Below are positions 5,956 to 19,404 of a DNA stretch of 20,000 nucleotides, piece after piece. Location: assembly GCA_023645945.1 (NCBI GenBank), contig JALAIB010000002.1, forward strand, positions 48,397 to 68,396, read 5' to 3'. Origin of the DNA: Diploschistes diacapsis (Eukaryota). The notes under the pieces are model-generated. The model had not been told where the DNA came from, made no database searches, and saw only the letters and a list, made by a program, of their open reading frames with translations. The position numbers were made by a program, and so were the translations under genes. How positions within the stretch are numbered: position 1 is the stretch's first letter; every line of letters begins with the position of its first letter.

Positions 5956-7304
5956 ATGATTCTGGGCCCTATTGCTTACATAGACTGCATGGTGTTTGTT
6001 GTTCTTCTAATACCACAACTACTTTACCGAGTAAACTGGAGTAAACTGCTCCTTACAGGCTTGAAAGCACTGCCTTATCTATGTATGAATTTCCCAGAAA
6101 ACTCATTGGAGATAACTAATCAACTGCAAAATAGTTATATTTATTCCGTATTCGTTCATTGCCGAACGCTATTACACACCCAAAAGAGACCAATCCCCTC
6201 ATGTTCAGCGCTCACGGCCGTTCCAAGACTTCGTCACGCGCTCTGTCAAGTATGCATTCGCAAATATGTCAGCCGACATTGGGCGTATCTTCTTCTCCAG
6301 AGAAGTTGCATTACCATTCACACGTTTCCGTATGCTCCGTAATGGCATTTTCCGTTCACCTGTCAAGTGGGCAGAGGTAAGGATACAAGGGAAGGAGAGG
6401 TATGCTGACGTGAAAGTATGCTCTGACAAAGATACTGAAGTGTGTAGTGTACGCGGTCTGCTAATGAAGGCTGATCCCTCGAAAGAGGCAGACATGGTCG
6501 TCTACTACTGCCATGGTAAAACGCTAGCCCCATGGCCTTCACCTTCTGATCTGACCTAAAACAGGTGGCGGCTTCTCCATGGGCTCACCCTACTTCTACC
6601 TGGAGCCGCATCTTGTTCTGCTATCGTTACTTCAGAGACATTATCAGAACCCGGCCGTTTTCTCGCTGGATTACGATCTGGTCCCAGATCGAAAATGGCC
6701 TGTTCAATTGGACCAAGTAACGGCTGGCTACCAGTTCGCCCTTTCGGTAGCCTCTGGCGATTCCGCTCGAGTGTGCGTGGCTGGCGATTCTGCAGGCGGC
6801 ACGCTTGTATTGAGTCTCCTCTTAGCCCTTGCAAAAAAGGTAGGGGTCAACGGAATTAAGCCCGGATATGCAACTCTATTGAGCCCTTGGGTAACGCTCG
6901 TGTCTCCAAGCAATAAGGACACGAAGAGCGACTTTCTCAATTTCGATACTTTACATTTGTATGCAGGTGAATATGCCGGTACGACCGACAATCTCTACAA
7001 TCCTTTAATATCACCCGGCTGTTGTAAGGACTTGCAGTGGTGGGCATCCGCCGCGCCATTGAATGGATTTTACTTCAGCTTCGGGTCCGAGGAAGTTCTT
7101 TCTTCAGAGGCGAAGACATTAATCCAGCTTCTGCGAAAAGCCTCTGTTCCGGTTCGTGTAAGGGAGGAGCCAGGAGGAGTACATGCATGGGTCATTGCAA
7201 ACTTATTTCTGTGCAATACATTCGAAGAAAGGATCTTCGGAATGCAAGAGGTGGTAAAAGCGATAGTTTCTAATATCCCTCCGTCAGCGAAACTAAAAAA
7301 TTAA
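5956..7304 (+). CDS. Alpha/beta hydrolase, HSL family (Say1/steryl-deacetylase-like) with N-terminal hydrophobic segment
   Basis: Exons 5956-6082, 6135-6399, 6448-6515, 6565-7304 (intron 2 boundaries least certain). Oxyanion motif YYCH-GGGFSMGS is restored only after splicing 6516-6564; nucleophile GDSAGG; LLSPW; GSEEVL acid; GGVHAW His. Confidence 0.9.
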
Positions 7305-7540: not shown

Positions 7541-8998
7541 ATGCTTACACGTGCTCTGAGGCCAGGCCAAAGACTACCTCTACGGAGGAATGCAGTGACC
7601 AGTCTCTCCCGACGGTTAGTCACGACAGATGCTGCATCAGCACATGCGGACAAGGAAAGCGTACCGACAGTAAGTACTCGAGAAGCAATTTAATGAGATG
7701 CAGAGTTTGATAGGCTGGGCAGGAAGATGACAAGCCATTTGAAGTCAAGCTCTCCGATGAAAGCTTCGAAACATACGAGCTTGATCCTCCTTCATATACC
7801 TTGAACACTACGAAAAAGGAGCTGAAGCAGATGTACCGTGACATGGTCACGATAAGGTGAGATTGAGCCCTGTATGAAGATTAGTTCGTCCTCGCTGAGT
7901 GTTTCAATGCAGGCGCATGGAAATGGCTGCCGATCGTCTCTACAAAGAAAAGAAAATCCGAGGTTTCTGCCACTTATCGACAGGACAGGAGGCTGTTGCA
8001 ACCGGCATCGAGCACGCTATTACCAAGGAAGACTCTGTGATCACTGCGTACCGATGTCATGGCTTTGCTTTGATGCGCGGTGGAACTGTCAAGTCCATTA
8101 TCGGGGAACTGCTCGGCCGAAGAGAAGGTATTGCTTACGGGAAGGGCGGATCGATGCATATGTTCTCGAAAGGCTTTTTTGGCGGCAACGGCATCGTCGG
8201 CGCTCAAGTGCCTGTTGGCGCTGGGCTTGCATTTGCACAACAATACACGGGAAAACAGAATACCACGCTCGCCTTGTACGGCGATGGTGCGGCCAACCAA
8301 GGTCAAGTTTTCGAGGCGTTCAACATGGCCAAGCTATGGAACCTACCTATTATTTTTGGATGTGAAAGTATGTTCTTCTTCCGTCCTTACCGCAACATCC
8401 ATTTGTCGCATTACTAACAGATGCGCCAGACAACAAGTACGGCATGGGCACATCCGCCAACCGCTCCTCCGCCCTGACCGACTACTACAAGCGCGGGCAG
8501 TACATCCCCGGCCTGAAGGTCAACGGTATGGACGTCCTCGCCGTCAAAGCCGCCGTCCAATACGGCAAAGCCTACAATCTCGCCGGCCACGGCCCCCTCG
8601 TCTACGAATACGTCACATACCGCTACGGCGGGCATTCCATGTCCGACCCGGGCACCACCTACCGCACTCGCGAGGAGATCCAGCGCATGCGCAGCACCAA
8701 CGACCCCATCGCGGGCCTGAAGCAGAAGCTGCTCGACTGGGGCGTCACATCCGAGGAGGAGCTGAAGACCATCGACAAGGACGCCCGCAAGTACGTCGAC
8801 GACGAGGTGGCGGAGGCGGAGAGGATGGACGTCCCGGAGCCGACACCCAAGGTTTTGTTCGAGGACATGTACGTGAGGGGCAGCGAGCCGCTGTGGGTGA
8901 GGGGCCGGACGCCGGATGAGACGCACTACTTCGACGACCTGGGCGTATCGAAGGAGGGATCGACGCAGAGGTTTGATAAGGAGAGGGCGATGGCTTGA
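7541..8998 (+). CDS. PDA1: Pyruvate dehydrogenase E1 component alpha subunit, mitochondrial
   Basis: Exons 7541-7669, 7723-7856, 7913-8367, 8430-8998. Arg-rich presequence [47 protein letters not shown] motif [18 protein letters not shown]; phosphorylation loop [14 protein letters not shown]. Confidence 0.98.
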
Positions 8999-9449: not shown

Positions 9450-9705
9450 TGTCTGTGGAGAGACTTCGGCTTCTTTGTGGCTCCCGTGCTGCTTCTCCCC
9501 TGGCACTTCCGTTTCCCCCCTTGCCCCATCTCGCCAATACGCGATCCCTCCTTTTTTCCCTGCCCCCGTCATCGCCCAACACGCGATCCCTCCTTTCCCC
9601 CTTCTTTTGCGCCATCGTCTCTCTCCACCTTCCCGCCTCCCCCCCCGTTAAGCTCGGTCGTGTCTGTGCTAATCTTGGGCTTCTTCGCGGCTCCCTGCTC
9701 CTCAT
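9450..9705. repeat. Degenerate internal duplications at the HAT1 3' end
   Basis: 9531-9560 tcgccaatacgcgatccctccttttttccc matches 9572-9600 tcgcccaacacgcgatccctcctttcccc. About 9450-9490 gtgtctgtggagagacttcggcttctttgtggctccc matches about 9660-9696 gtgtctgtgctaatcttgggcttcttcgcggctccc. Confidence 0.8.
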
Positions 9706-11343
9706 CCGACTCCTCGTCTTCGTCGTCCACAATCTTTCTCTTCCCCCTCCCACTTCGGGCTCTGCTAGCGCTCTCGTTTTGCGCTGGCCCATTATCGCCC
9801 GCACTTTCCGCCCCCTGCTCCTCATCCCTCGGACCCTGCTCCATCTTCCCTAGCAGCCGCTCATAATCCTCCCACTGCCGGGCCAGCGTCTGCTCCAGCT
9901 TCTCCACCCTCTCGTCCCCCTCAATCTGTATCAGCAGATCCTTGTGCTGCCGATATATCCTCTGCTTGACCAGCAGCCGCCAGTAGTAGAACGCCCTGTC
10001 TCCCTCGTCGCTCGCCCAAGCCTTGCGCGTCAGCCGCGTCGTATTCGCCTGCCGCGTGTACTGCGGGATCTGCGATAGGAGGTGCATCTCCACCAGCCGC
10101 GCGAACTGGCGCGGGGCAAGCTTGTTCTTCGTACGCAGGGTTTCGAGGAGGGGCTTGTCGAGGAGCTTGGAGGTGGGGACACAGACTCGGGGGCGGCGCA
10201 CGGTGAGCTTGGGCTCGAGGTTCACGTTCAGCTTGATTTGGGAGAAGGTGCCGTTTGCGGAGAGGCGAGCGTAGTCGCAGAAGTCGCGGAGGTCGTCGAA
10301 GTGCTCGTTAGGGTCCTCGACGGTGATCTCTATGCAGGCGGGATCGGAGAGGATGGAGGAGATGGCGGCCTTGTAGAGGTGGCGCCCGTGGCCCCGGCCT
10401 TGGAAGGGGGGGAGAATGAGAAATTGGGAGATGCGGGTGCGGTTGGGCAGGGAGGTGAGAGAGATAGGGTCGGGTGGGGGAAAGGAGAATGATCGAGGGG
10501 AAGAGGCTTGTGCGGTTGCGTGAGTGGAGCTGGAGGTGAAGAGGGAGGAGGTGGAGGGCTGGTAGGTGAGGAAGCCATAGGCCGTGCTGTAACCGACAAG
10601 GGAGTAGGGGGAGTAGATGAATTCAGTGGTAGGGAGTTTTTCAAAGCTGGTAACCATAAGCAGCGTAGTGTGTATGCGAAGGCGATGGCTTACATGAACC
10701 AGACTCGCCAGCGCGCGGACGACCACTCCGGATCGTCCATAGGTATCAGGACGCCACCATCGATAAAGAAGGGTATTAGGATCTGGACTCGCTCGATAAG
10801 CTTCGCAACGCTGGGATCGGAGAGTTCTCCAGCCCATATCTCATAGTCGTGCCCTTCGAGAGCATAAGAGCTCATGCATTTTCCAGGCGGTTTGAATGAG
10901 CCTGCCTTCTCGGCATTGCGGAGTCGGCTATCGAAGTCTTCCGGACTATTGAAGGCGTCTTGGGCATGATATTAGCTTTGTAAATATGGAGAAGTCGCAT
11001 GATCGCACATGGTGGCAAATACTCCTTGAAGATTTTCTTCAGATCCACCGCTCTTGTATCTCCAACAGCCTTCCATTTATCGCTATACGTGATGTCTAGG
11101 TTCGGATATACGTCATGCGCTGTGAAGCGAAGTTTCACGTCCAGGTCTTTGTAACCAAATATCGATTGATCTTGCCCAAAAAATTGCTCGGTATACTCGG
11201 GATTGAAGGAGTAGATCTGCTCGGGGCCACCTTTAGAAGGCTGGCTTATGGTGATCTGGATAGCTTCATTGGCGCTTGTAGACCCTGTTGATCTGTCAGA
11301 CGTAATTGCTAGCATGTGAAACTAGCATACATTCTTCGTCCAT
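9569..11343 (-). CDS. HAT1: Histone acetyltransferase type B catalytic subunit
   Basis: Exons 11343-11331, 11284-11009, 10958-10694, 10646-9569. MDEEWSTSANEAI; FNPEYT..FG..SIFGYKDL; PFFIDGG; GNAT motif A RISQFLILPPFQGRGHG; EITVEDPNEHFDDLRD. The extreme C-terminus is uncertain (see findings). Confidence 0.95.
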
Positions 11344-12202
11344 GACTGCTTCTGTCAGTGTTTGATCGCAAGTTGCGATGAACAGGCGCAAAGCACGCTC
11401 AGCTTTCAATGTCAGTGATACGGAGTACTAGGACGCGCCGTATCGTGTAGCCGCCGCGCTAAGGAGATGCGCATGGACCCAGTGGTATACTTGATGGATA
11501 ACGTATAACTTAAAGAGACCTCACTTCAACGAATCTCTGAGTGATCTGGATTTTGGTGCTTGAATCGTGTGCAACAAGGTGGCACCAAATGTCCAGTTTC
11601 TTCGTCAAAGTCGATACTATTTGTAATGTTATTAATACCAGTGCTTCATTGATCATTCCCAGACAGGCTGCAATATACTACTATATCCCTACCATATCAA
11701 AAGCATGGAGGGATAGATAATAATCCAATAGGGTTGAATGCTACTTGAGGTGTATGCAGTACTGGTGGAAAGACTCTAAGTGAGTATAGGCTTTGCGCTG
11801 CTATTGGAAATAGCCCATCGAAACTTGGTTCTGCTACATCTTTATTAATGAGTGCCTTATACCTGCTCCTGGATTTATAATGCGTCTTTGTCGACCCCGA
11901 GGTTGGTCTGCATTCTGAATTTGAAGACTCCATACCGCGCCCCTGCTCAAAGAGAAGACGCTATTGTTACCCCTTTCAGGGCCCATGGCTGCCTTAGCAT
12001 CTGGGGAGATTCGCGTAAACCATACCCTCGATCTTTGCCTCCTCCATAGTCTCCCGTCCCAGCTTTGTACAGAAGCCTTCCGACCTTGAGACTGTCTGCA
12101 CAAAACGAGCTCATTCTCCAAGCTGTAGTTTTGCAAAACGTATTCTACAATACCACGCCGCTGTAAGTCAGGCTTGACGTAAGACTCCCGTAAAGACTCC
12201 CG

Positions 12203-14211
12203 ATGACTGCGAAAGGTTCAATGCATTGCTGGTGCAATGCACTTTGTTTGATCCGTGCCAACCACCCCACCATTTCCAAAAAACATCAGAGGAGAGGAGA
12301 GACGACGGGAGATGAGGTCGTCCAGGAGATCAAGCCAGAACAAGCAAGTCGTTGCGATCTGTACGATGTTATCGTTCAAGATGCCTACACAGAAATGAAC
12401 TGGACCGAAACCTTGAATGATAAAGTTATAGGGGCGAGAGACTACTCTTTGAAAGAGATGGCCGATGTTCGCAGTCTCCAAGGCTGACACGTACTAGGGA
12501 ATGGTACGGAGGATAGCTCCGAAGATGGCTCGGAAAATGGTTCGAAGATGATTCTGAAGACGATCTGGGCGATGAACTAGTTAATGACCTGGAAGAGGGC
12601 CCAGACGACAACATGGAAGACGGGTTGAGCAACGACTTGGGGAGCGATTCGAAAGAGGAACTCAAATATCAGCTTTGGGCATGTGCTTACTGCTCTGATA
12701 ATTACCTAGGTACGATTCGCTAACCTTTAATAAGGAGTTCAACTTTACGCTAGCAATAGAAATCCTAACGACTAGAAAGCTGACTTCGTTGCTGACGATG
12801 TTCGCTCTCACTGGCAGGAAGCACGTCAGTTGACAGAAGAAAATCAGCATCTCTTGGGCTCCATTTTATTAGATGAGAAGATGCGCCAGTCAATCCTCAA
12901 GATGCATATCGAGTTCTGGTGTAAGAAATATTCTATCTTCTCAGATTATTGGCTAATCTGTTGAAGCTTGGAAACGTCAGAAGCAAAATCGACCTGCAAA
13001 CATACGACTCGTTGGGCTCAAGTGCATCGGCCCAATGCCATTGGAAGGAAAGAGTGTAGCGACAGAGGAAAATCACTGTGCTTTTCAAACCATTTTGGAC
13101 CTTGACAATTCATACCTACCCATGAGCACCTTAACCAAGAGCGATTCACACACCATCAAGCTCAGCAAAAGATGCGTGCCTTGCTGGGCTCGTCATCGAC
13201 TCACAGTGGTGTTGGCAACTCGACAACTCTTCGCTAGTACAGAGGATCAACAGCGCACCTACGCCAAGAATGGTTGCTTCCAGACAGGATGGTTCGGCAC
13301 TCGATACTGTTACCGTCATGCCGACGATGAGTTGGGCACAAATTGGCATCCAGTGCCACGATATGATCCGGCCCAATCAGCTCTGAGTTCCGAGGTCGAC
13401 AATCGCATTTCATGTCAGCAGCTTCAAAACAGTGGACCAGTAGCGAAGACATTCAGCTTGCGATGTCTCTTGCCGCGGAAATTAGAGCAGGTCATCGACA
13501 AGGCACTGACTTGGTTATCTTGGACATTGAGTTCAGTCGAAGTGGTCAGGTTAAGGGGGTTGCTCTTATCGAGTACGTATCCGGACGGGTCCTCTTAGAC
13601 ACATTGGTCAAGCCCCTAGCACCTCCGGAGCTCTCTCAATTGAAGCTGGCTTGGAGAAGAGGTTTAATCGATCACTTGTGGTCCAGGAAGCTCGATTCTT
13701 CTGGTACAAACACTGATCAAGATCTCGATGTCTGGGCTATCGCAGAGGTCCTTGAAGATTCTGGAGTTACAAAAGATTCCGTCATTTTGGTCTGGCATTC
13801 AACGTATTACGATTTGACCTTATTGGACACTTTCTTGGAAACTGCTGGAGCTAATTCGGCGCTACCCATCCGAGGGCAAACTGTGTTCGCCTGGTGCCTC
13901 ACGTTCGCGCCAATGTGCCTCCTCACAACGGGAAACCCTTCCCTGCGGCTCTATCAACAATATTTCCCATTCTATTTCCCAGCCATGAATTGGTTGGGCG
14001 TAATCATCGAGCCTTAGTGGATTGTCAGCAAACCCGACTTATCATGACGGTGTTCGAAGAGTTTGCCAAAAAACCAATCGGCAGTCCTGGAAGGCTAGAA
14101 TTATCTGAAGTTAAACCCACTCAGCAGACTCTGGAGAACTGGTTGGTTGACCCAACTCTGGTCCCCAATCACCAGGAAACCCAGAATCGGGGCCGATGGA
14201 CTGACATCTGA
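12203..14211 (+). pseudogene. Frameshifted multi-exon gene: acidic tract, Cys/His-rich segment, C-terminal DEDDh (DnaQ/RNase T-like) 3'-5' exonuclease domain
   Basis: ExoI LVILDIEFS (D 13523, E 13529); ExoII ILVWHSTYYD (13793-13813); ExoIII NHRALVD (H 14005, D 14020) in another frame. Frameshifts near 12541, ~13380 and ~13870. Clean intron 12921-12966 (GTAAGA..GCTAAT..AAG) joins IEFW-S-WKRQK. The 5' limit is uncertain and may extend to ~11700. Confidence 0.75.
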
Positions 14212-14559: not shown

Positions 14560-15958
14560 CTAAATACAAGGTCTACATTTCAAAGTTTTTTCAGAACAAA
14601 GCGTATTCTCATGCCATACTAGTGTTATGGATCTGGGATCCACTTCAGATCCTAACAAGGGTATGGGGTGAAGCTACGGACTTTAGTAGCTCTACTGAGA
14701 AGAATACCGTTCTCGGAGCATTCAATAAGCTGTTGAGGTAGAATGCTTCACAAACCAAGGTATGGCCACTTGTCCTTACTTCGGTACATTTCGACTGCTT
14801 AGTCCAGTCCTGGCTTTGTTGTATGATATACCTCTGGAGAAGATGACCAGAGCTGGAAAGGTTCATATCTCTGGTTTGTTCCGATACCTCATGTGGTACA
14901 TTTGGTTTTGCAGATCTGGCAGAACGTGCACGCGACAGGCTCGAACAGGATGTTCAGCCTCTGAAGCCAACCCAAGGCCGTGTATAATTTTTCGTTTTTC
15001 TGGGTTCTCCGTCCGCCAGCCGTATGGTATTGGGAACAGAGGTATGGTAAATGGGAGGAGTTCATTTGATTAAATACGAGTAGGGTGTTCATGGCCCTAA
15101 AGCGTTTTAGAAGGACGTAAAGCGTATTGGCCGTCCGGCCGTTCAGAGTCGGTCTCACAACCTTCAATTGGGTTTCAATATCTCTTCTTGGTTGGTCTCT
15201 GTCAAGAGCTGTCCGTAATTATTCGATTTTGGCCGTCTCGGCTTTGGCGTAAGTGTTACAGGAATGCTTGTAGATGCGCATGTAAGGTCGGCGCCGCCGA
15301 CATCGCTCGAGCAGCCTCCCAATCTCGGTATAAGACCGGGGCAGATCCTGTTAAATACGTGCGAAGTAACACCGGTGGACCACCCGGTGCTTTGAACTCG
15401 TCCGCACAGACGGACCTAGGTGCTATGATCAGTAGGGTGACAATGATTTGGCGGGCTTGTTCGAACCATGCTCACGTCTTGCAGCTTGTTGGATCCTGTA
15501 ATAGAGTGTCTCGAGCGCCAAGCTTCTGTCTCACGATAGTCCTGACGGCCTCCTCAGGAGTATGATCAACGAATTCATCTGATAAAGTTTTGTGACCAAC
15601 CGGACACTTCTTCGCTTTTGTTTACATACGCATTAACGTATTCCGTGATCGACATACGAGGCCGCCCAAGCAACCCTCTTGAGAGGACATTAAAGCTTGT
15701 CTCGTTTCTTCCAATATTATATCCCACTCCTGAATACCCTCTTTTATCCATTAAGCTGCTCAAGGAGCCTTTCATATGATTAGTCACTTCTGCAGCTGAT
15801 CTCCCAAAAACTAGAGCGGCATTATGGTTGAAGGTCATTATCCGAACATTGGAGACCGTTTGAGACAGGAAACCTTTTGACCGAAAGGCTTCCGACTTTA
15901 AATAGTTCCAGGTGCTGAAAACCTCGCCGCCCAGGCCGTAGACTGTGACGGTATTACG
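14560..15958 (-). pseudogene. Relic of an NLR-like gene: SesB/DUF676-like alpha/beta hydrolase - patatin - NB-ARC - TPR, heavily deleted
   Basis: 15952-15740 TVTVYGLGGEVFSTWNY..GFLSQTVSNVRIMTFNHNAALVFGRSAAEVTNHMKGSLSSLMDKR (SesB-like start). 15670-15283 LGRPRMSITEYVNAYVNKSEEV / DHTPEEAVRTIVRQKLG..SCKT|SVCA..PVLLRTY..WEAARAMSAAPT (patatin; intron 15475-15416). 15054-14971 PFTIPLFPIPY..EKRKIIHGLG (approach to the NB-ARC P-loop). 14834-14781 EVYH/QQSQ/LD*AVEMYR (TPR-like). The first two calls are strong and the last two weaker. Confidence 0.72.
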
Positions 15959-16421
15959 ATAAGGTTTCTGTCAGCAATCCGTCTCGATTCATTGTCTGGC
16001 AAGGGTTCGGACGTGAGCGATTTAGTCCAAGAAGGCCGGCGTGGTAATGTCTCTTGGAGAATACCCGATAGACGACAACATAACAAGAAGGTTTCCTTAA
16101 GAAAGAAAAGATCCAACGGAGAATGGAAGGCGTTGGCGGCAGCAGGGGTTGCTAGTTTGTTGGGCAATTAAAGGCCTTCTGGAAAGTAAACCATAAATAC
16201 CATTGGAATAGTATTATACCTTTCACGCCTAAAATAGGTTGTGAGAAAGCCTTCGAAAACGGCGTGCAGTCCATCGCGAATCGGGCGCGCTTTCACCTGC
16301 ACACGGAATATGCGCGTTCGAAAGAGAGAAAGCTTGGCTCAAGCAGGGGAACTTCTATAGAACTACTACATACTCGACGCCAGCATGGAAGGGCGCACCC
16401 CGTGAGGTGGTCGCTGTATAG

Positions 16422-19404
16422 ATGTCGCTAGAGGACGGCGACAATGGGGAAGGAGCCTCCGTGCCCCTTCGCATTGTAGAACCCGCCGAGGCGCAGCCAG
16501 AAGATGGCAGCGAGCTGGAAGACGACCCGGTACTGGCGCGCAATGCAGACAGTGCTCTGCTCGCAGAGGAGGACTTTTTGTCCGATAATGCCACAGCCCA
16601 GTACTACTGATGCTCCGTCTTTGAACGTTCGTCACTGACCATTACTAGGCTATCTTTCAAGCGTAAGCAGAAGCAACCAGCTAGGATCTTCCTTCCCAAA
16701 TTTCTCCAACCACTACCAATAACCCCGGTCCGTTCGGCTGGCACTGGCACACCGCTATCGTCTGCTCGAATACGGAGATTGAGAGAACAATCATCCCAAA
16801 ATAACTCCGACGTCGCCCTTTCCGAACCCCACGGTCACGCTGTTGGCGCGAATGGAGATATAGAAACTACAAAAGAGGGGGGGCCACTGGACTGGTATGG
16901 GGATGGGCCACGGCGAAGAGTTGGGTATGATGATCTAACAGCGATCGATTGGATCTTTGAGTACACGAAGGAGCGTCAGCGTCTGCGAATGCTATCCTCA
17001 AGAGCTTCGGGTCTACTTGGTCAGCTAAACCAGCTCTGGGATGCTAGCCAGGTATGGTTCATCCTAGTTGCAACTGGCGCCTTGTCAGGTATGCTGGCTG
17101 CCGCAATAGACATTATAAGCGACTGGCTAGGGGATATACGGACTGGCTTCTGCTACGGCCAGGATGGCGCTCGACAGTTCTACCTTAGCCAGGCATTCTG
17201 CTGCTGGGGACATGACCGTGAGTCTGAACGGGAGCTGCTCGCTCAACTCTTTGACTTATTCAGGGTTATCTGACTGCGTCGATTGGACTTTTTGGGGGGA
17301 TGCCCTTCGGATTGGCGTTGTAGGTGGCCGATTCGTGGTGGAATACATCTTCTTCGTTCTTCTCTCTGTCAGCATTGCCGCCCACTCTCCATGAGTTTTT
17401 CTGATTATAATTTAGGTCGCCTTCGCTGTCTGCGCAAGTGTCTTGGTCCGAGATTACGCCCAGTACGCTAAGCAGAGTGGTATTCCGGAAATCAAGACAG
17501 TGCTGGGAGGTTTCGTTATCCAGCGTTTCATGGGCGCTTGGACTTTAGTAATAAAGTCTATTGGCCTTGTAAGTGGAGAGAGTGTGCGCGACGACCTCGT
17601 GCTGAACATGCATGCAGTGCCTCGCAGTGTCTTCCGGTTTATGGCTGGGAAAGGAAGGCCCACTTGTTCATGTTGCATGCTGCTGTGCAAATCTTCTCAC
17701 CAAACTCTCCAGTAGCATCAGTGGAAGCGAAGGTATGCCCGGCTCATTGCTCGTCTGTATAAATGGTGTTCACGTATCTCAGCTAGGAAGCGTGAAGTGC
17801 TATCCGCTGCTGCCTCGGCTGGCATATCTGTAGCTTTCGGATCTCCCATCGGCGGTGTGCTCTTTAGTCTTGAGGTATTGGGAGCCTCCATCAAACTTTG
17901 ATTTAAAATTGCTAATATCGTGCAGCAACTGTCATATTATTTCCCCGACACTACAATGTGGCAAAGCTTTGTCTGTGCCATGGTTGCAGCAGTCACTTTG
18001 CAGCTTATAAACCCATTCCGTACGGAACAGCTTGTACTGTATCAAGTCAGCTATTCTACTGGTTATCACGGCTTCGAGCTTGTGCCTTTTGCGGCGCTCG
18101 GTATCCTTGGTGGCATTTATGGAGGTCTCTTTATCAAGCTCAACATGAAAGTCGCAAAATGGAGACGATCTACCAGGGTCGCTCGGTATCCTGTGCTCGA
18201 AGTCTTTTTCGTTGCTACTGTCACCGCGGTAATCAACTTTCCGAATAAGTTCATGCGAGCCCGCCCCGCAAAGCTTGTCCATATCCTGTTCGCCGAATGC
18301 GACCCGAACAAGTTCGATGCTTGGGGCATCTGTCGACTCGATGGCCAGTACACAAGCACCATCATCCAGCTTCTTTCGGCGTCGGCGCTCGGGTTTTTGT
18401 TCGCTTCAGCCACGTTTGGCATGAAGATTCCTTCCGGAATAATATTGCCTTCTATGGCAGTCGGAGCATTGTATGGCCGAGTCATTGGAACCGTCGTCCA
18501 AACCATCCAACAGGGTAATCCGGGCTCGATATTCTTCGCCAACTGCGAGCCTGATAGAGAATGCGTTACGCCTGGAACCTATGCTATCGTTGGAGCTGCC
18601 GCAGCCCTTGGCGGTGTCACGCGAATGACGGTCTCTATTGTCGTGATCATGTTTGAACTCACTGGCGCGCTCACCTATGTCCTGCCAATCATGATTGCTG
18701 TCATGTTAAGCAAATGGATAGGGGACGCTTTCGGTAAACGAGGCATTTACGAAAGCTGGATTCACTTCAACGAATATCCGTTCTTGGACAACAGAGACGA
18801 TCAGCAACCACCAGATATCCCCTCTTCCCAAGTAATGACAAAAGTTGACGAGCTTGCCACCCTACCCGCCGCCGGGCACACACTGAAGAGCCTTCGAGAG
18901 TTTCTGTCGGCGCACCAATACCGTGGCTTTCCGATTGTGGTGGACCACGTGAACAATATCTTCCTCGGGTACATTACCCGGACCGAGCTTACGTATGCCA
19001 TCAAGTCTTCCATGGCCGAACCAAGAAGAATGCCGCCGGAGACACCCGTCTTCTTCTCCCATCAACCACATGCCAATCCCCTCGCCACGGTCGATTTCAG
19101 GCCTTGGATGGATCAGACTCCCATTACTCTCAACGGCAGATCCACCTTTCAACTGACTGTTGACCTCTTCCTTAAGCTGGGACTCAAATACGTACTCTTC
19201 CTGGACAAAGGCTCACTCCGGGGCTTGCTTACCAAGAAAGATGTCTGGTATGTCTTGAATAGTGTGGAAGAAGAAGGAGTCGGCGAGGAAGTCGTGACGC
19301 CTAGGTCGAGCAGAGGATACTCGTGGTCTAGTGATAGAAGAGTTCTTCTTACGCCAAGAACGCCCGGTATTGCCGGACTGGACAGTGCATTCGAGGATGG
19401 ATAG
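16422..19404 (+). CDS. CLC-family chloride channel/transporter (ClC-3/Gef1-like) with two C-terminal CBS domains
   Basis: Exons 16422-16600, 16649-17217, 17264-17367, 17416-17568, 17618-17732, 17783-17874, 17926-19404, all in phase. Motifs [64 protein letters not shown] segments YRGFPIV and LRGLLTKKD. Confidence 0.96.

Follow-up and report, generated by a model that had tools for sequence, protein, structure and literature searches.

A probable chimeric pseudogene of a SesB-like and a patatin gene, shared by related lichen fungi

Introduction

The gene families of fungal NOD-like receptors (NLRs) and of cell death undergo rapid birth, death and domain reshuffling, and PLP-1 of Neurospora acts in allorecognition cell death. 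On the minus strand of a 20,000-nucleotide (nt) stretch of Diploschistes diacapsis DNA (contig JALAIB010000002.1; hereafter the window), fragments of two lipase families lie one behind the other: a piece of a SesB-like/DUF676 hydrolase and a piece of a patatin. The question raised by this locus is whether the two descend from one receptor that carried both lipases in tandem ahead of NB-ARC and TPR domains, as a first-pass annotation of 14560-15958 had proposed, or from two genes. The peptide strings on which that annotation was built are all found, on the minus strand and in the order it gave, and both families are indeed N-terminal effectors of fungal NLRs.

On the sequence comparisons set out below we suggest that 15283-16081 (minus strand) is probably a non-functional chimeric pseudogene of two separate genes, common to related lichen fungi. 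The relic differs in extent from the span first given, since it stops near 15283 and begins further upstream, with a start codon and an N-terminal exon (Table 1). Three introns account for part of the frame changes, and damage explains only the rest.

The 5′ end of a SesB-like gene

The SesB string, VYGLGGEVFSTW ... RIMTFNHNA ... SLSSLMDKR, sits in a 131-residue stop-to-stop open reading frame (ORF) at 15578-15970. A word-indexed search for longer proteins containing this ORF returned none; an exhaustive HMMER search against 1.84 billion representatives (E ≤ 1e-3) then gave 91 matches, 15 of them at E ≤ 1e-10 and the best functional relatives at E 4e-15. All 91 align to residues ~5-90 of the ORF, and one of them (P0063), an unrelated bacterial repeat protein, is a false positive. 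DUF676 is present in 10 of the 26 matches that were scanned with Pfam; in the same scan P0065, P0067, P0087 and P0088 run on into NB-ARC, the last three with TPR as well. Pfam DUF676 was not significant on the fragment itself, and when ten stop-to-stop ORFs from the interval were run through hmmscan with a cutoff of E ≤ 10, a DUF4836 match of no relevance (E 0.072) was all that came up; the silence of Pfam is due to pieces that are too short or too degenerate. We therefore made our own profiles for SesB, patatin, the TPR unit (543 units) and NB-ARC (138 sequence stretches), taking as chance level the maximum score in 20 shuffled windows. The SesB part reaches 77.7 bits on its profile against a shuffle maximum of 7.4, which upholds its assignment as a SesB-like/DUF676 relic; the homology is to the N-terminal strand-helix region of the family (HGLGG…W…FLP…RIxTFGYNA).

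Comparison with 34 metagenome loci related to the SesB exon (L-numbers; L007-L017 are near-identical copies from sister assemblies, so that the number of independent loci is smaller) resolves 15728-16081 into exons 1 and 2, which together with two intron relics make up the 5′ part of a gene. Exon 1 is supported by tblastn with residues 4-14 of P0012, by tblastx to L030 and L031 at 16016-16102, and by alignment at the DNA level with exon 1 of four relatives. Exon 2 aligns at 47-54% identity and is a segment that precedes the nucleophile motif. The relatives close it at DKREExE followed by GT, and most of the short database matches are first-exon calls that end in DKREExE and then V, the GT donor being read through. 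An intron of ~50 nt and an exon starting EIxRPLIFIAHSLGG follow in the 26 loci printed.

Intron 1 carries lesions at both ends. Its donor reads CT (CTAAAT) in the window, against GT(G/A)AGT in four of four relatives, and its acceptor AA, against AG in three of three; a branch-like TTGCTGAC is still present. With this donor and acceptor there is no intact, spliceable SesB coding sequence here, and a retained intron 1 runs into an in-frame TAA at 16024-16022. The nucleophile elbow GxSxG (AHSLGG in P0012, P0065 and P0067) and the downstream Asp/His region lie outside the retained part, and the profile found no other SesB segment in the window save for one doubtful match on the other strand. That match, at 12019-12174 (plus strand), covers profile positions 205-244, in the C-terminal part around the H…CKF stretch, at 7.6 bits, lies 3.6 kb from the relic and may be due to chance. 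A further stretch, 7573-7737 (minus strand), is matched weakly by many SesB-like fragments (tblastn E 0.007-1.7; WLxxFLPS … RVxTxG) across an internal stop and is missed by the SesB profile; this similarity is most likely accidental, or else the trace of a very ancient fragment.

The N-terminal ~97 residues are homologous, at 35-54% identity, to those of SesB-NB-ARC-TPR receptors (P0067, which is KAI9764687.1 from a Geoglossum umbratile metagenome-assembled genome (MAG), P0088, and loci L003, L007 and L024), and the loci of this type have both intron positions in common with the window. Compared with them the window keeps exons 1 and 2 only, with mutated splice sites and without the nucleophile motif, the rest of the hydrolase fold, NB-ARC or TPR. 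The best long match to the SesB part, at 47% identity, is a stand-alone DUF676 protein of 394 residues from Cladophialophora psammophila (P0012, XP_007739472.1), which is itself intact and single-domain and whose N-terminal exon can be aligned with the window. Given its relatives the parent gene was probably an NLR gene; the retained exons by themselves are compatible with either a stand-alone or an NLR-linked ancestral form. Pa_2_10340 of Podospora anserina is listed with the SesB-like-NB-ARC-TPR architecture (PMC4986451).

An internal piece of a stand-alone patatin

Behind the SesB part, 15283-15673 is colinear with residues ~66-177 of the lichen patatins P0002 and P0095 (tblastn E 8e-24), so that the patatin relic of the first-pass annotation stands. 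The strings LGRPRMS, CKT/VCA, PVLLRTY and WEAARAMSAAPT are all aligned. On the patatin profile three ORFs in a row score 31.6, 15.4 and 7.3 bits (shuffle maximum 5.3) and together take in positions 64-178. In tblastn, residues 66-97 of P0002, a protein that itself matches PF01734 at 5.7e-24, fall on 15673-15578 and residues 96-176 on 15588-15286; the 20 extra codons that interrupt the second match are an intron. When frame 1 is read through at 15259-15621, with one TGA taken as X, the product has two patatin matches, P0002 with E 3e-14 and P0003, which aligns to 36% of the query with 77% identity.

A single base separates the frames of pieces A and B (Table 1). Set against P0095, the change amounts to a short frame-shifting deletion, and the gap is too short for an intron; the relative behind P0004, discussed below, ends its ORF at the same place. 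Between pieces B and C, the intron after CKT is at a position that the stand-alone patatins share with the window, and the gene calls of P0003 and P0097 begin just behind it.

Homology ends after SAAPT, at ~15283, and no later patatin segment was found in the window with P0002 and P0095 in tblastn or with the patatin profile. One alignment to P0162 would extend the patatin to 15139 (E 0.031), with a DG at the expected offset; P0002, P0095 and the profile do not confirm it and we set it aside. The catalytic motifs of P0095, namely DGGGIRG (~15-21), GTSTG (~56-60) and IDGG (~192-195), all lie outside residues 66-177, and the relic holds none of the patatin hallmarks GGGxRG, GxSxG and catalytic Asp (DGG/DGA).

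The closest relatives of this piece are stand-alone PNPLA/patatin proteins of lichen fungi (P0095, P0002, P0003 and P0097), proteins of 396/397 residues with the patatin domain from residue ~12. P0095 (KAL2053385.1) is the closest named protein, annotated with 397 residues on a 450-kb contig of the lichen fungus Lepraria finkii. Outside the intron 49 of 81 aligned residues (96-176) are identical to these patatins, and with P0003 identity reaches 77% over 43 residues; missing from the window are residues 1-65 and 178-397, and with them the three catalytic motifs and a Q/G/N-rich tail. PLP-1-type receptors, which have the patatin-NB-ARC-TPR architecture (PMC9815663), share PF01734 and the LGRxRMS and WEAARATSAAPT stretches with the window. 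They score about half as well, at ≤~62 bits against 116-118 bits for P0002 and P0095; the lower value is that of 120 longer proteins, of which only the patatin-domain segments were compared. In the window, NB-ARC and TPR do not follow the patatin.

The tail just mentioned is a feature in its own right. In P0002, P0095, P0003 and P0097 the C-terminal ~35 residues hold a conserved Q/G/N-rich twin motif (QITQGGSxFQ … GxSQ(F/L)QGNF(V/I)G), which we presume to be reminiscent of fungal amyloid signalling motifs. The ESM Atlas gave nothing usable in favour of this idea for residues 335-397 (scores ≤0.78, TM <0.5).

Table 1. Minus-strand features of the remnant and of the interval behind it, in the order of reading
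Feature	Position in the window	Strand	Basis or remark
SesB-like exon 1	16026..16081	-	ATG 16081-16079; reads MLSSIGYSPRDITTPAFL + 2 nt
SesB intron 1 relic, 72 nt	15954..16025	-	DNA alignment with relatives; sequence
SesB-like exon 2 (…TVTVYGLGGEVFSTW…RIMTFNHNA…SLMDKRGYSG)	15728..15953	-	~residues 20-97 of P0012
SesB intron 2 relic and junction zone	15678..15727	-	26 and 9 relatives compared
Patatin piece A (LLGRPRMSITEYVNAYVNKSEEVSGWSQNF)	15584..15673	-	P0002/P0095 residues 66-~95; tblastn 35-38 bits; profile positions 64-87
Frameshift, extra base 15583	15582..15584	-	between the frames of pieces A and B
Patatin piece B (SDEFVDHTPEEAVRTIVRQKLGARDTLLQDPTSCKT)	15476..15582	-	P0095 residues ~98-133; profile 15.4 bits
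Patatin intron, 60 nt (GTGAGC … CTACTGAT … AG)	15416..15475	-	splits the Thr codon of CKT
Patatin piece C (SVCADEFKAPGGPPVLLRTYLTGSAPVLYRDWEAARAMSAAPT)	15283..15415	-	P0095 residues 134-177; profile 31.6 bits; 77% identical to P0003
Supposed NB-ARC and TPR interval	14560..15282	-	no detectable homology to NB-ARC, TPR, rest of patatin or SesB

The point of fusion

The donor of SesB intron 2, GTGGGA, is kept at 15727-15722, and what follows can be aligned in two ways. With MAFFT the intron has its full length, 50 nt (51 nt in L030), and ends in AAG at 15680-15678; TTTAAT stands at the place of the branch site, and patatin homology begins a few bases after the acceptor. By eye, TTTAATGTCCTCTCA (15694-15680) can be read as the first five codons of SesB exon 3 (EIxRPL), with 14 of 15 bases matching L030 and a GTCCTCTC core common to most relatives. 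The latter alignment needs a 1-nt deletion and a loss of ~20 nt inside the intron, and it places the break five codons into exon 3. In both, SesB homology stops between 15694 and 15678, just before the nucleophile motif, and patatin homology begins at 15673, just past the nucleophile motif of the patatin. The junction lies at, or at most ~5 codons from, the SesB intron-2/exon-3 boundary.

In L026 (5444-5653) we found a second SesB-like relic consisting of exon 2 only, 71% identical to residues 25-94 of P0012, whose homology stops a few bases into exon 3 and within ~10 nt of the point at which it stops in the window; the ~9 kb downstream of it hold no SesB, NB-ARC or patatin. The gene call P0068 (220 residues, from a 1260-nt contig) has a degenerate SesB exon 2, then an intron 2 that is read through, and then the start of an NPHP3_N/NACHT domain; it lacks the SesB catalytic part, and the boundary is that of the window. 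In P0069, an annotated lichen-fungus protein of 242 residues from a Pycnora praestabilis MAG, the SesB-like model jumps from DKRE to the segment after the nucleophile stretch, so that the RPxIFxxHSxGG block is missing.

Probably two genes rather than one protein

We looked for the two domains in one protein or gene from both sides and found no such case among the relatives compared. None of the 34 SesB-related loci has a patatin match (E ≤ 1e-4). In 19 of them the sequence reaches 2.5 kb or more downstream; NB-ARC/TPR follows in 15 of these, and in L001, L026, L029 and L032 it does not. From the patatin side, we took the best 120 of 1869 longer proteins that match P0095 at E ≤ 1e-5, nearly all of which list NB-ARC and/or TPR in precomputed Pfam. 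Not one of these 120 has a SesB-like domain by our SesB profile (E ≤ 10), which hit four of four SesB-NLR controls at >340 bits each, and not one lists a DUF676-type family. Among the 91 matches to the SesB part, only P0004 spans both parts, and it is the same relic in a relative.

Published surveys point the same way as far as they are covered here. SesB-like-NB-ARC-TPR and patatin-NB-ARC-TPR appear as separate canonical architectures (Dyrka et al. 2014, PMC4986451; a Sordariales study, PMC12258605). In the portions of Wojciechowski et al. 2022 (PMC9815663) considered, C2, PUP and SesB-like are paired with Goodbye-like as double N-termini and no SesB-patatin class is given; the rows listed from its per-protein table include no 'SESB-LIKE PATATIN' and one 'PATATIN SESB-LIKE', a 2581-residue NACHT-ANK model.

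No detectable receptor domains behind the patatin

The proposed receptor also required NB-ARC and TPR domains at 14560-15282, where RKIIHGLG had been assigned to Walker A, and both EVYH..LD*AVEMYR and LGSE.DPRSI to TPR repeats. RKIIHGLG is without the GKT of a P-loop (GxGGxGKT), and Pfam at E ≤ 10 returned nothing for the five minus-strand ORFs that carry these strings. On the minus strand of the interval, the strongest tblastn match to any of four SesB-NLRs and the 120 longer patatin proteins is no stronger than E 1.4. The NB-ARC profile has its best score in the window, 1.6 bits, outside the interval (shuffle maxima 0.9-4.8). The TPR profile, applied unfiltered to the 873 ORFs that the window has in its six frames, peaks at 4.1 bits at 6056-6115, with none of its top 15 matches in the interval (shuffle maxima 3.1-9.2). 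Both candidate domains are thus at or below chance, under a profile procedure that recovers the two lipase relics strongly. In tblastx against the 34 loci, many of them with full NLR genes, only the two SesB exons match; the whole window compared with the same loci (tblastx and blastn) adds only compositional matches in GC-rich stretches. The interval is best treated as unassigned decayed or intergenic DNA. No NB-ARC/TPR similarity is detected here, and the hydrolase and patatin fragments match separate proteins only; these are the two outcomes that the first-pass annotation itself named as counting against a tandem double-effector receptor.

A dead gene, older than the split of its carriers

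The remnant is dead, because the splice signals of intron 1 are mutated, the frame is shifted at ~15583 and neither enzyme has any of its catalytic motifs within the retained pieces. It is also shared. The lichen metagenome run that carries the window DNA at full identity is joined by three other runs with related copies. P0004, which comes from a different data set (contig of 2000 nt), shows 91% identity over 85-86 residues and has the same junction and the same stop after the frameshift. Contigs X3 (14650-16317) and X4 (15061-16095), from two other studies, cross the junction colinearly at 90-95% identity, with no joints reported. A 1-nt deletion at 15836, private to X3, falls within the 131-residue ORF and explains why P0004 starts in another frame; X3 has further indels of 2 nt at 15043 and 3 nt at 15109, and X3 and X4 have a 1-nt deletion at 15963 in common. 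From these shared and private lesions in P0004, X3 and X4 it follows that the chimera is older than the split of these lineages and has decayed independently since.

Some of the copies part from the window near 14620/14650. Two X3 contigs, of 11.8 kb and 2 kb, end their match at these positions and continue for 2 kb or more with sequence unlike that of the window, an X4 contig ends at 14620, and X2 is colinear with the window across 14620-14650. Either an insertion in the X3-type relatives or a deletion in the lineage of the window may underlie this break.

Origin of the chimera and alternatives

In the origin that we prefer, the 5′ part is what remains of a SesB-like/DUF676 gene on its promoter side, namely its first two exons with the intron behind each, joined at or within ~5 codons of the intron-2/exon-3 boundary to an internal patatin piece, residues ~66-177 of 397. 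The patatin parent belongs to the family that is stand-alone in lichen fungi, and its piece keeps its own intron. We infer that the two parents lay close together on the same strand, in a fast-turnover cluster of cell-death or immunity genes, and that a deletion or illegitimate recombination took everything between the SesB and the patatin nucleophile regions. A second break may then have removed the 3′ half of the patatin and whatever lay beyond; the remnant yields neither enzyme and has drifted neutrally since. What is established here is which genes the two pieces come from, how they are built, where they are damaged and that relatives carry them too; the adjacency of the parents and the order of events are the parts of this account that are put forward conditionally.

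Several observations weigh against this origin. The junction is in frame and gives the 131-residue ORF, and the order SesB-then-patatin on one strand is also expected from a tandem protein with an internal deletion. The adjacency of the parent genes is assumed in this account. As to the counts, many of the 15 NLR-type loci are copies of one gene (L007-L017), so that the number overstates independence; the figure of 0/120 covers the best 120 of 1869 proteins, from a search that scored just the 8000 candidates with most words in common; and the survey-table counts cover part of the table. Finally, an NB-ARC/TPR part could, strictly, have decayed past recognition. This would need far stronger decay than is seen next to it, because the adjoining lipase pieces keep 47-77% identity to living relatives.

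A possible but unlikely alternative is a frozen effector swap, in which ectopic intron-mediated recombination inserted the patatin piece into a SesB-type NLR gene directly after its exon 2 and intron 2; the exchange of the N-terminal domain would have been abortive, and the failed product would have decayed and lost its 3′ part. The MAFFT alignment is consistent with this, with an intron 2 of nearly unchanged length, a branch site in the matching position and a patatin start by the acceptor, as are the stop of SesB homology at the same boundary in L026 and the change at that boundary, in P0068, from SesB exon 2 to an NPHP3_N/NACHT start. NLR pairs with 80-99% identical NOD domains and different N-terminal domains are known (Table 2 of Dyrka et al. 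2014, PMC4986451). However, the alternative alignment places 15680-15694 in exon 3, so that the break is not exactly at the splice site, and neither tblastn nor the profiles find NB-ARC or TPR after the patatin piece. That piece, moreover, begins in mid-domain past the nucleophile, as no productive swap would, and the three or four cases are chance finds, not the outcome of a systematic count. It is a doubtful extension of the same idea that the intron-2/exon-3 boundary of SesB genes is a recurrent recombination point and the window a failed swap between two lipase effectors. A 5′ module of promoter, exons 1-2 and intron 2 would then become coupled to foreign coding sequence, which would be a patatin fragment in the window, a NACHT start in P0068 and unrelated DNA in L026.

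We regard the tandem ancestor, one NLR with SesB-like and patatin domains ahead of NB-ARC and TPR that deletions and decay reduced to fragments, as improbable. The common strand, the colinear order and the in-frame junction are all in its favour, both domains are known NLR effectors, double N-termini exist for other pairs (in the part of PMC9815663 covered), and the relatives of the SesB exons are mostly NB-ARC-TPR genes. Against it stand the absence of any NB-ARC or TPR signal found in 14560-15282, the 0/34 and 0/120 counts, the lack of SesB-like-then-patatin rows among the survey rows listed, and the fall of the patatin piece in the stand-alone clade.

It is very improbable that the remnant still has a use, for instance through a short protein encoded by the 131-residue ORF or through a regulatory transcript beside the CLC gene. 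The ORF is open across the junction, and P0004 retains 91% identity over 85-86 aligned residues; at ~6% DNA divergence, however, such identity is about what drift would be expected to leave. In addition, the ORF is broken in X3 by the deletion at 15836, P0004 starts in another frame, and no in-frame start codon backed by relatives follows the mutated intron 1. An artefact of metagenome assembly, from which the window does derive, can practically be discounted, because X3 and X4 bridge the junction colinearly in the same arrangement and P0004 was called across it in another data set.

Surroundings of the remnant

The window is fungal DNA. HAT1 lies at ~9569-11321 (minus strand; Pfam HAT1_C_fung) and a CLC chloride channel gene at ~16779-19404 (plus strand; Pfam Voltage_CLC, 1.4e-45); an Abhydrolase_3 ORF is found by Pfam at 6579-7304. 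At 13100-14200 (plus strand) the ORFs 12957-13598 and 13367-14017 overlap and look like one intron-containing gene, for which Pfam gives no family; by eye, its DLVILDIE … WH..YDL stretch presumably recalls a DEDD-type exonuclease. A 23-residue match at 12590-12658 (E 0.08) is low-complexity and was discarded.

Implications

A decayed remnant between two housekeeping genes is what the turnover of fungal NLR and cell-death families leaves behind, and it carries little weight by itself. The locus calls for caution in that colinear fragments need not mean one ancestral protein, because some of the frame changes come from introns and each piece has closest relatives of its own. It also provides a datable pseudogene that several related lichen mycobionts have in common. 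The break coincides with the SesB intron-2/exon-3 boundary, as it does in two further, unrelated records, and so offers a modest clue to how effector domains are exchanged; if that boundary were truly a recurrent point of recombination, the chimera would be a fossil trace of the process by which killing domains are exchanged among fungal NLRs.

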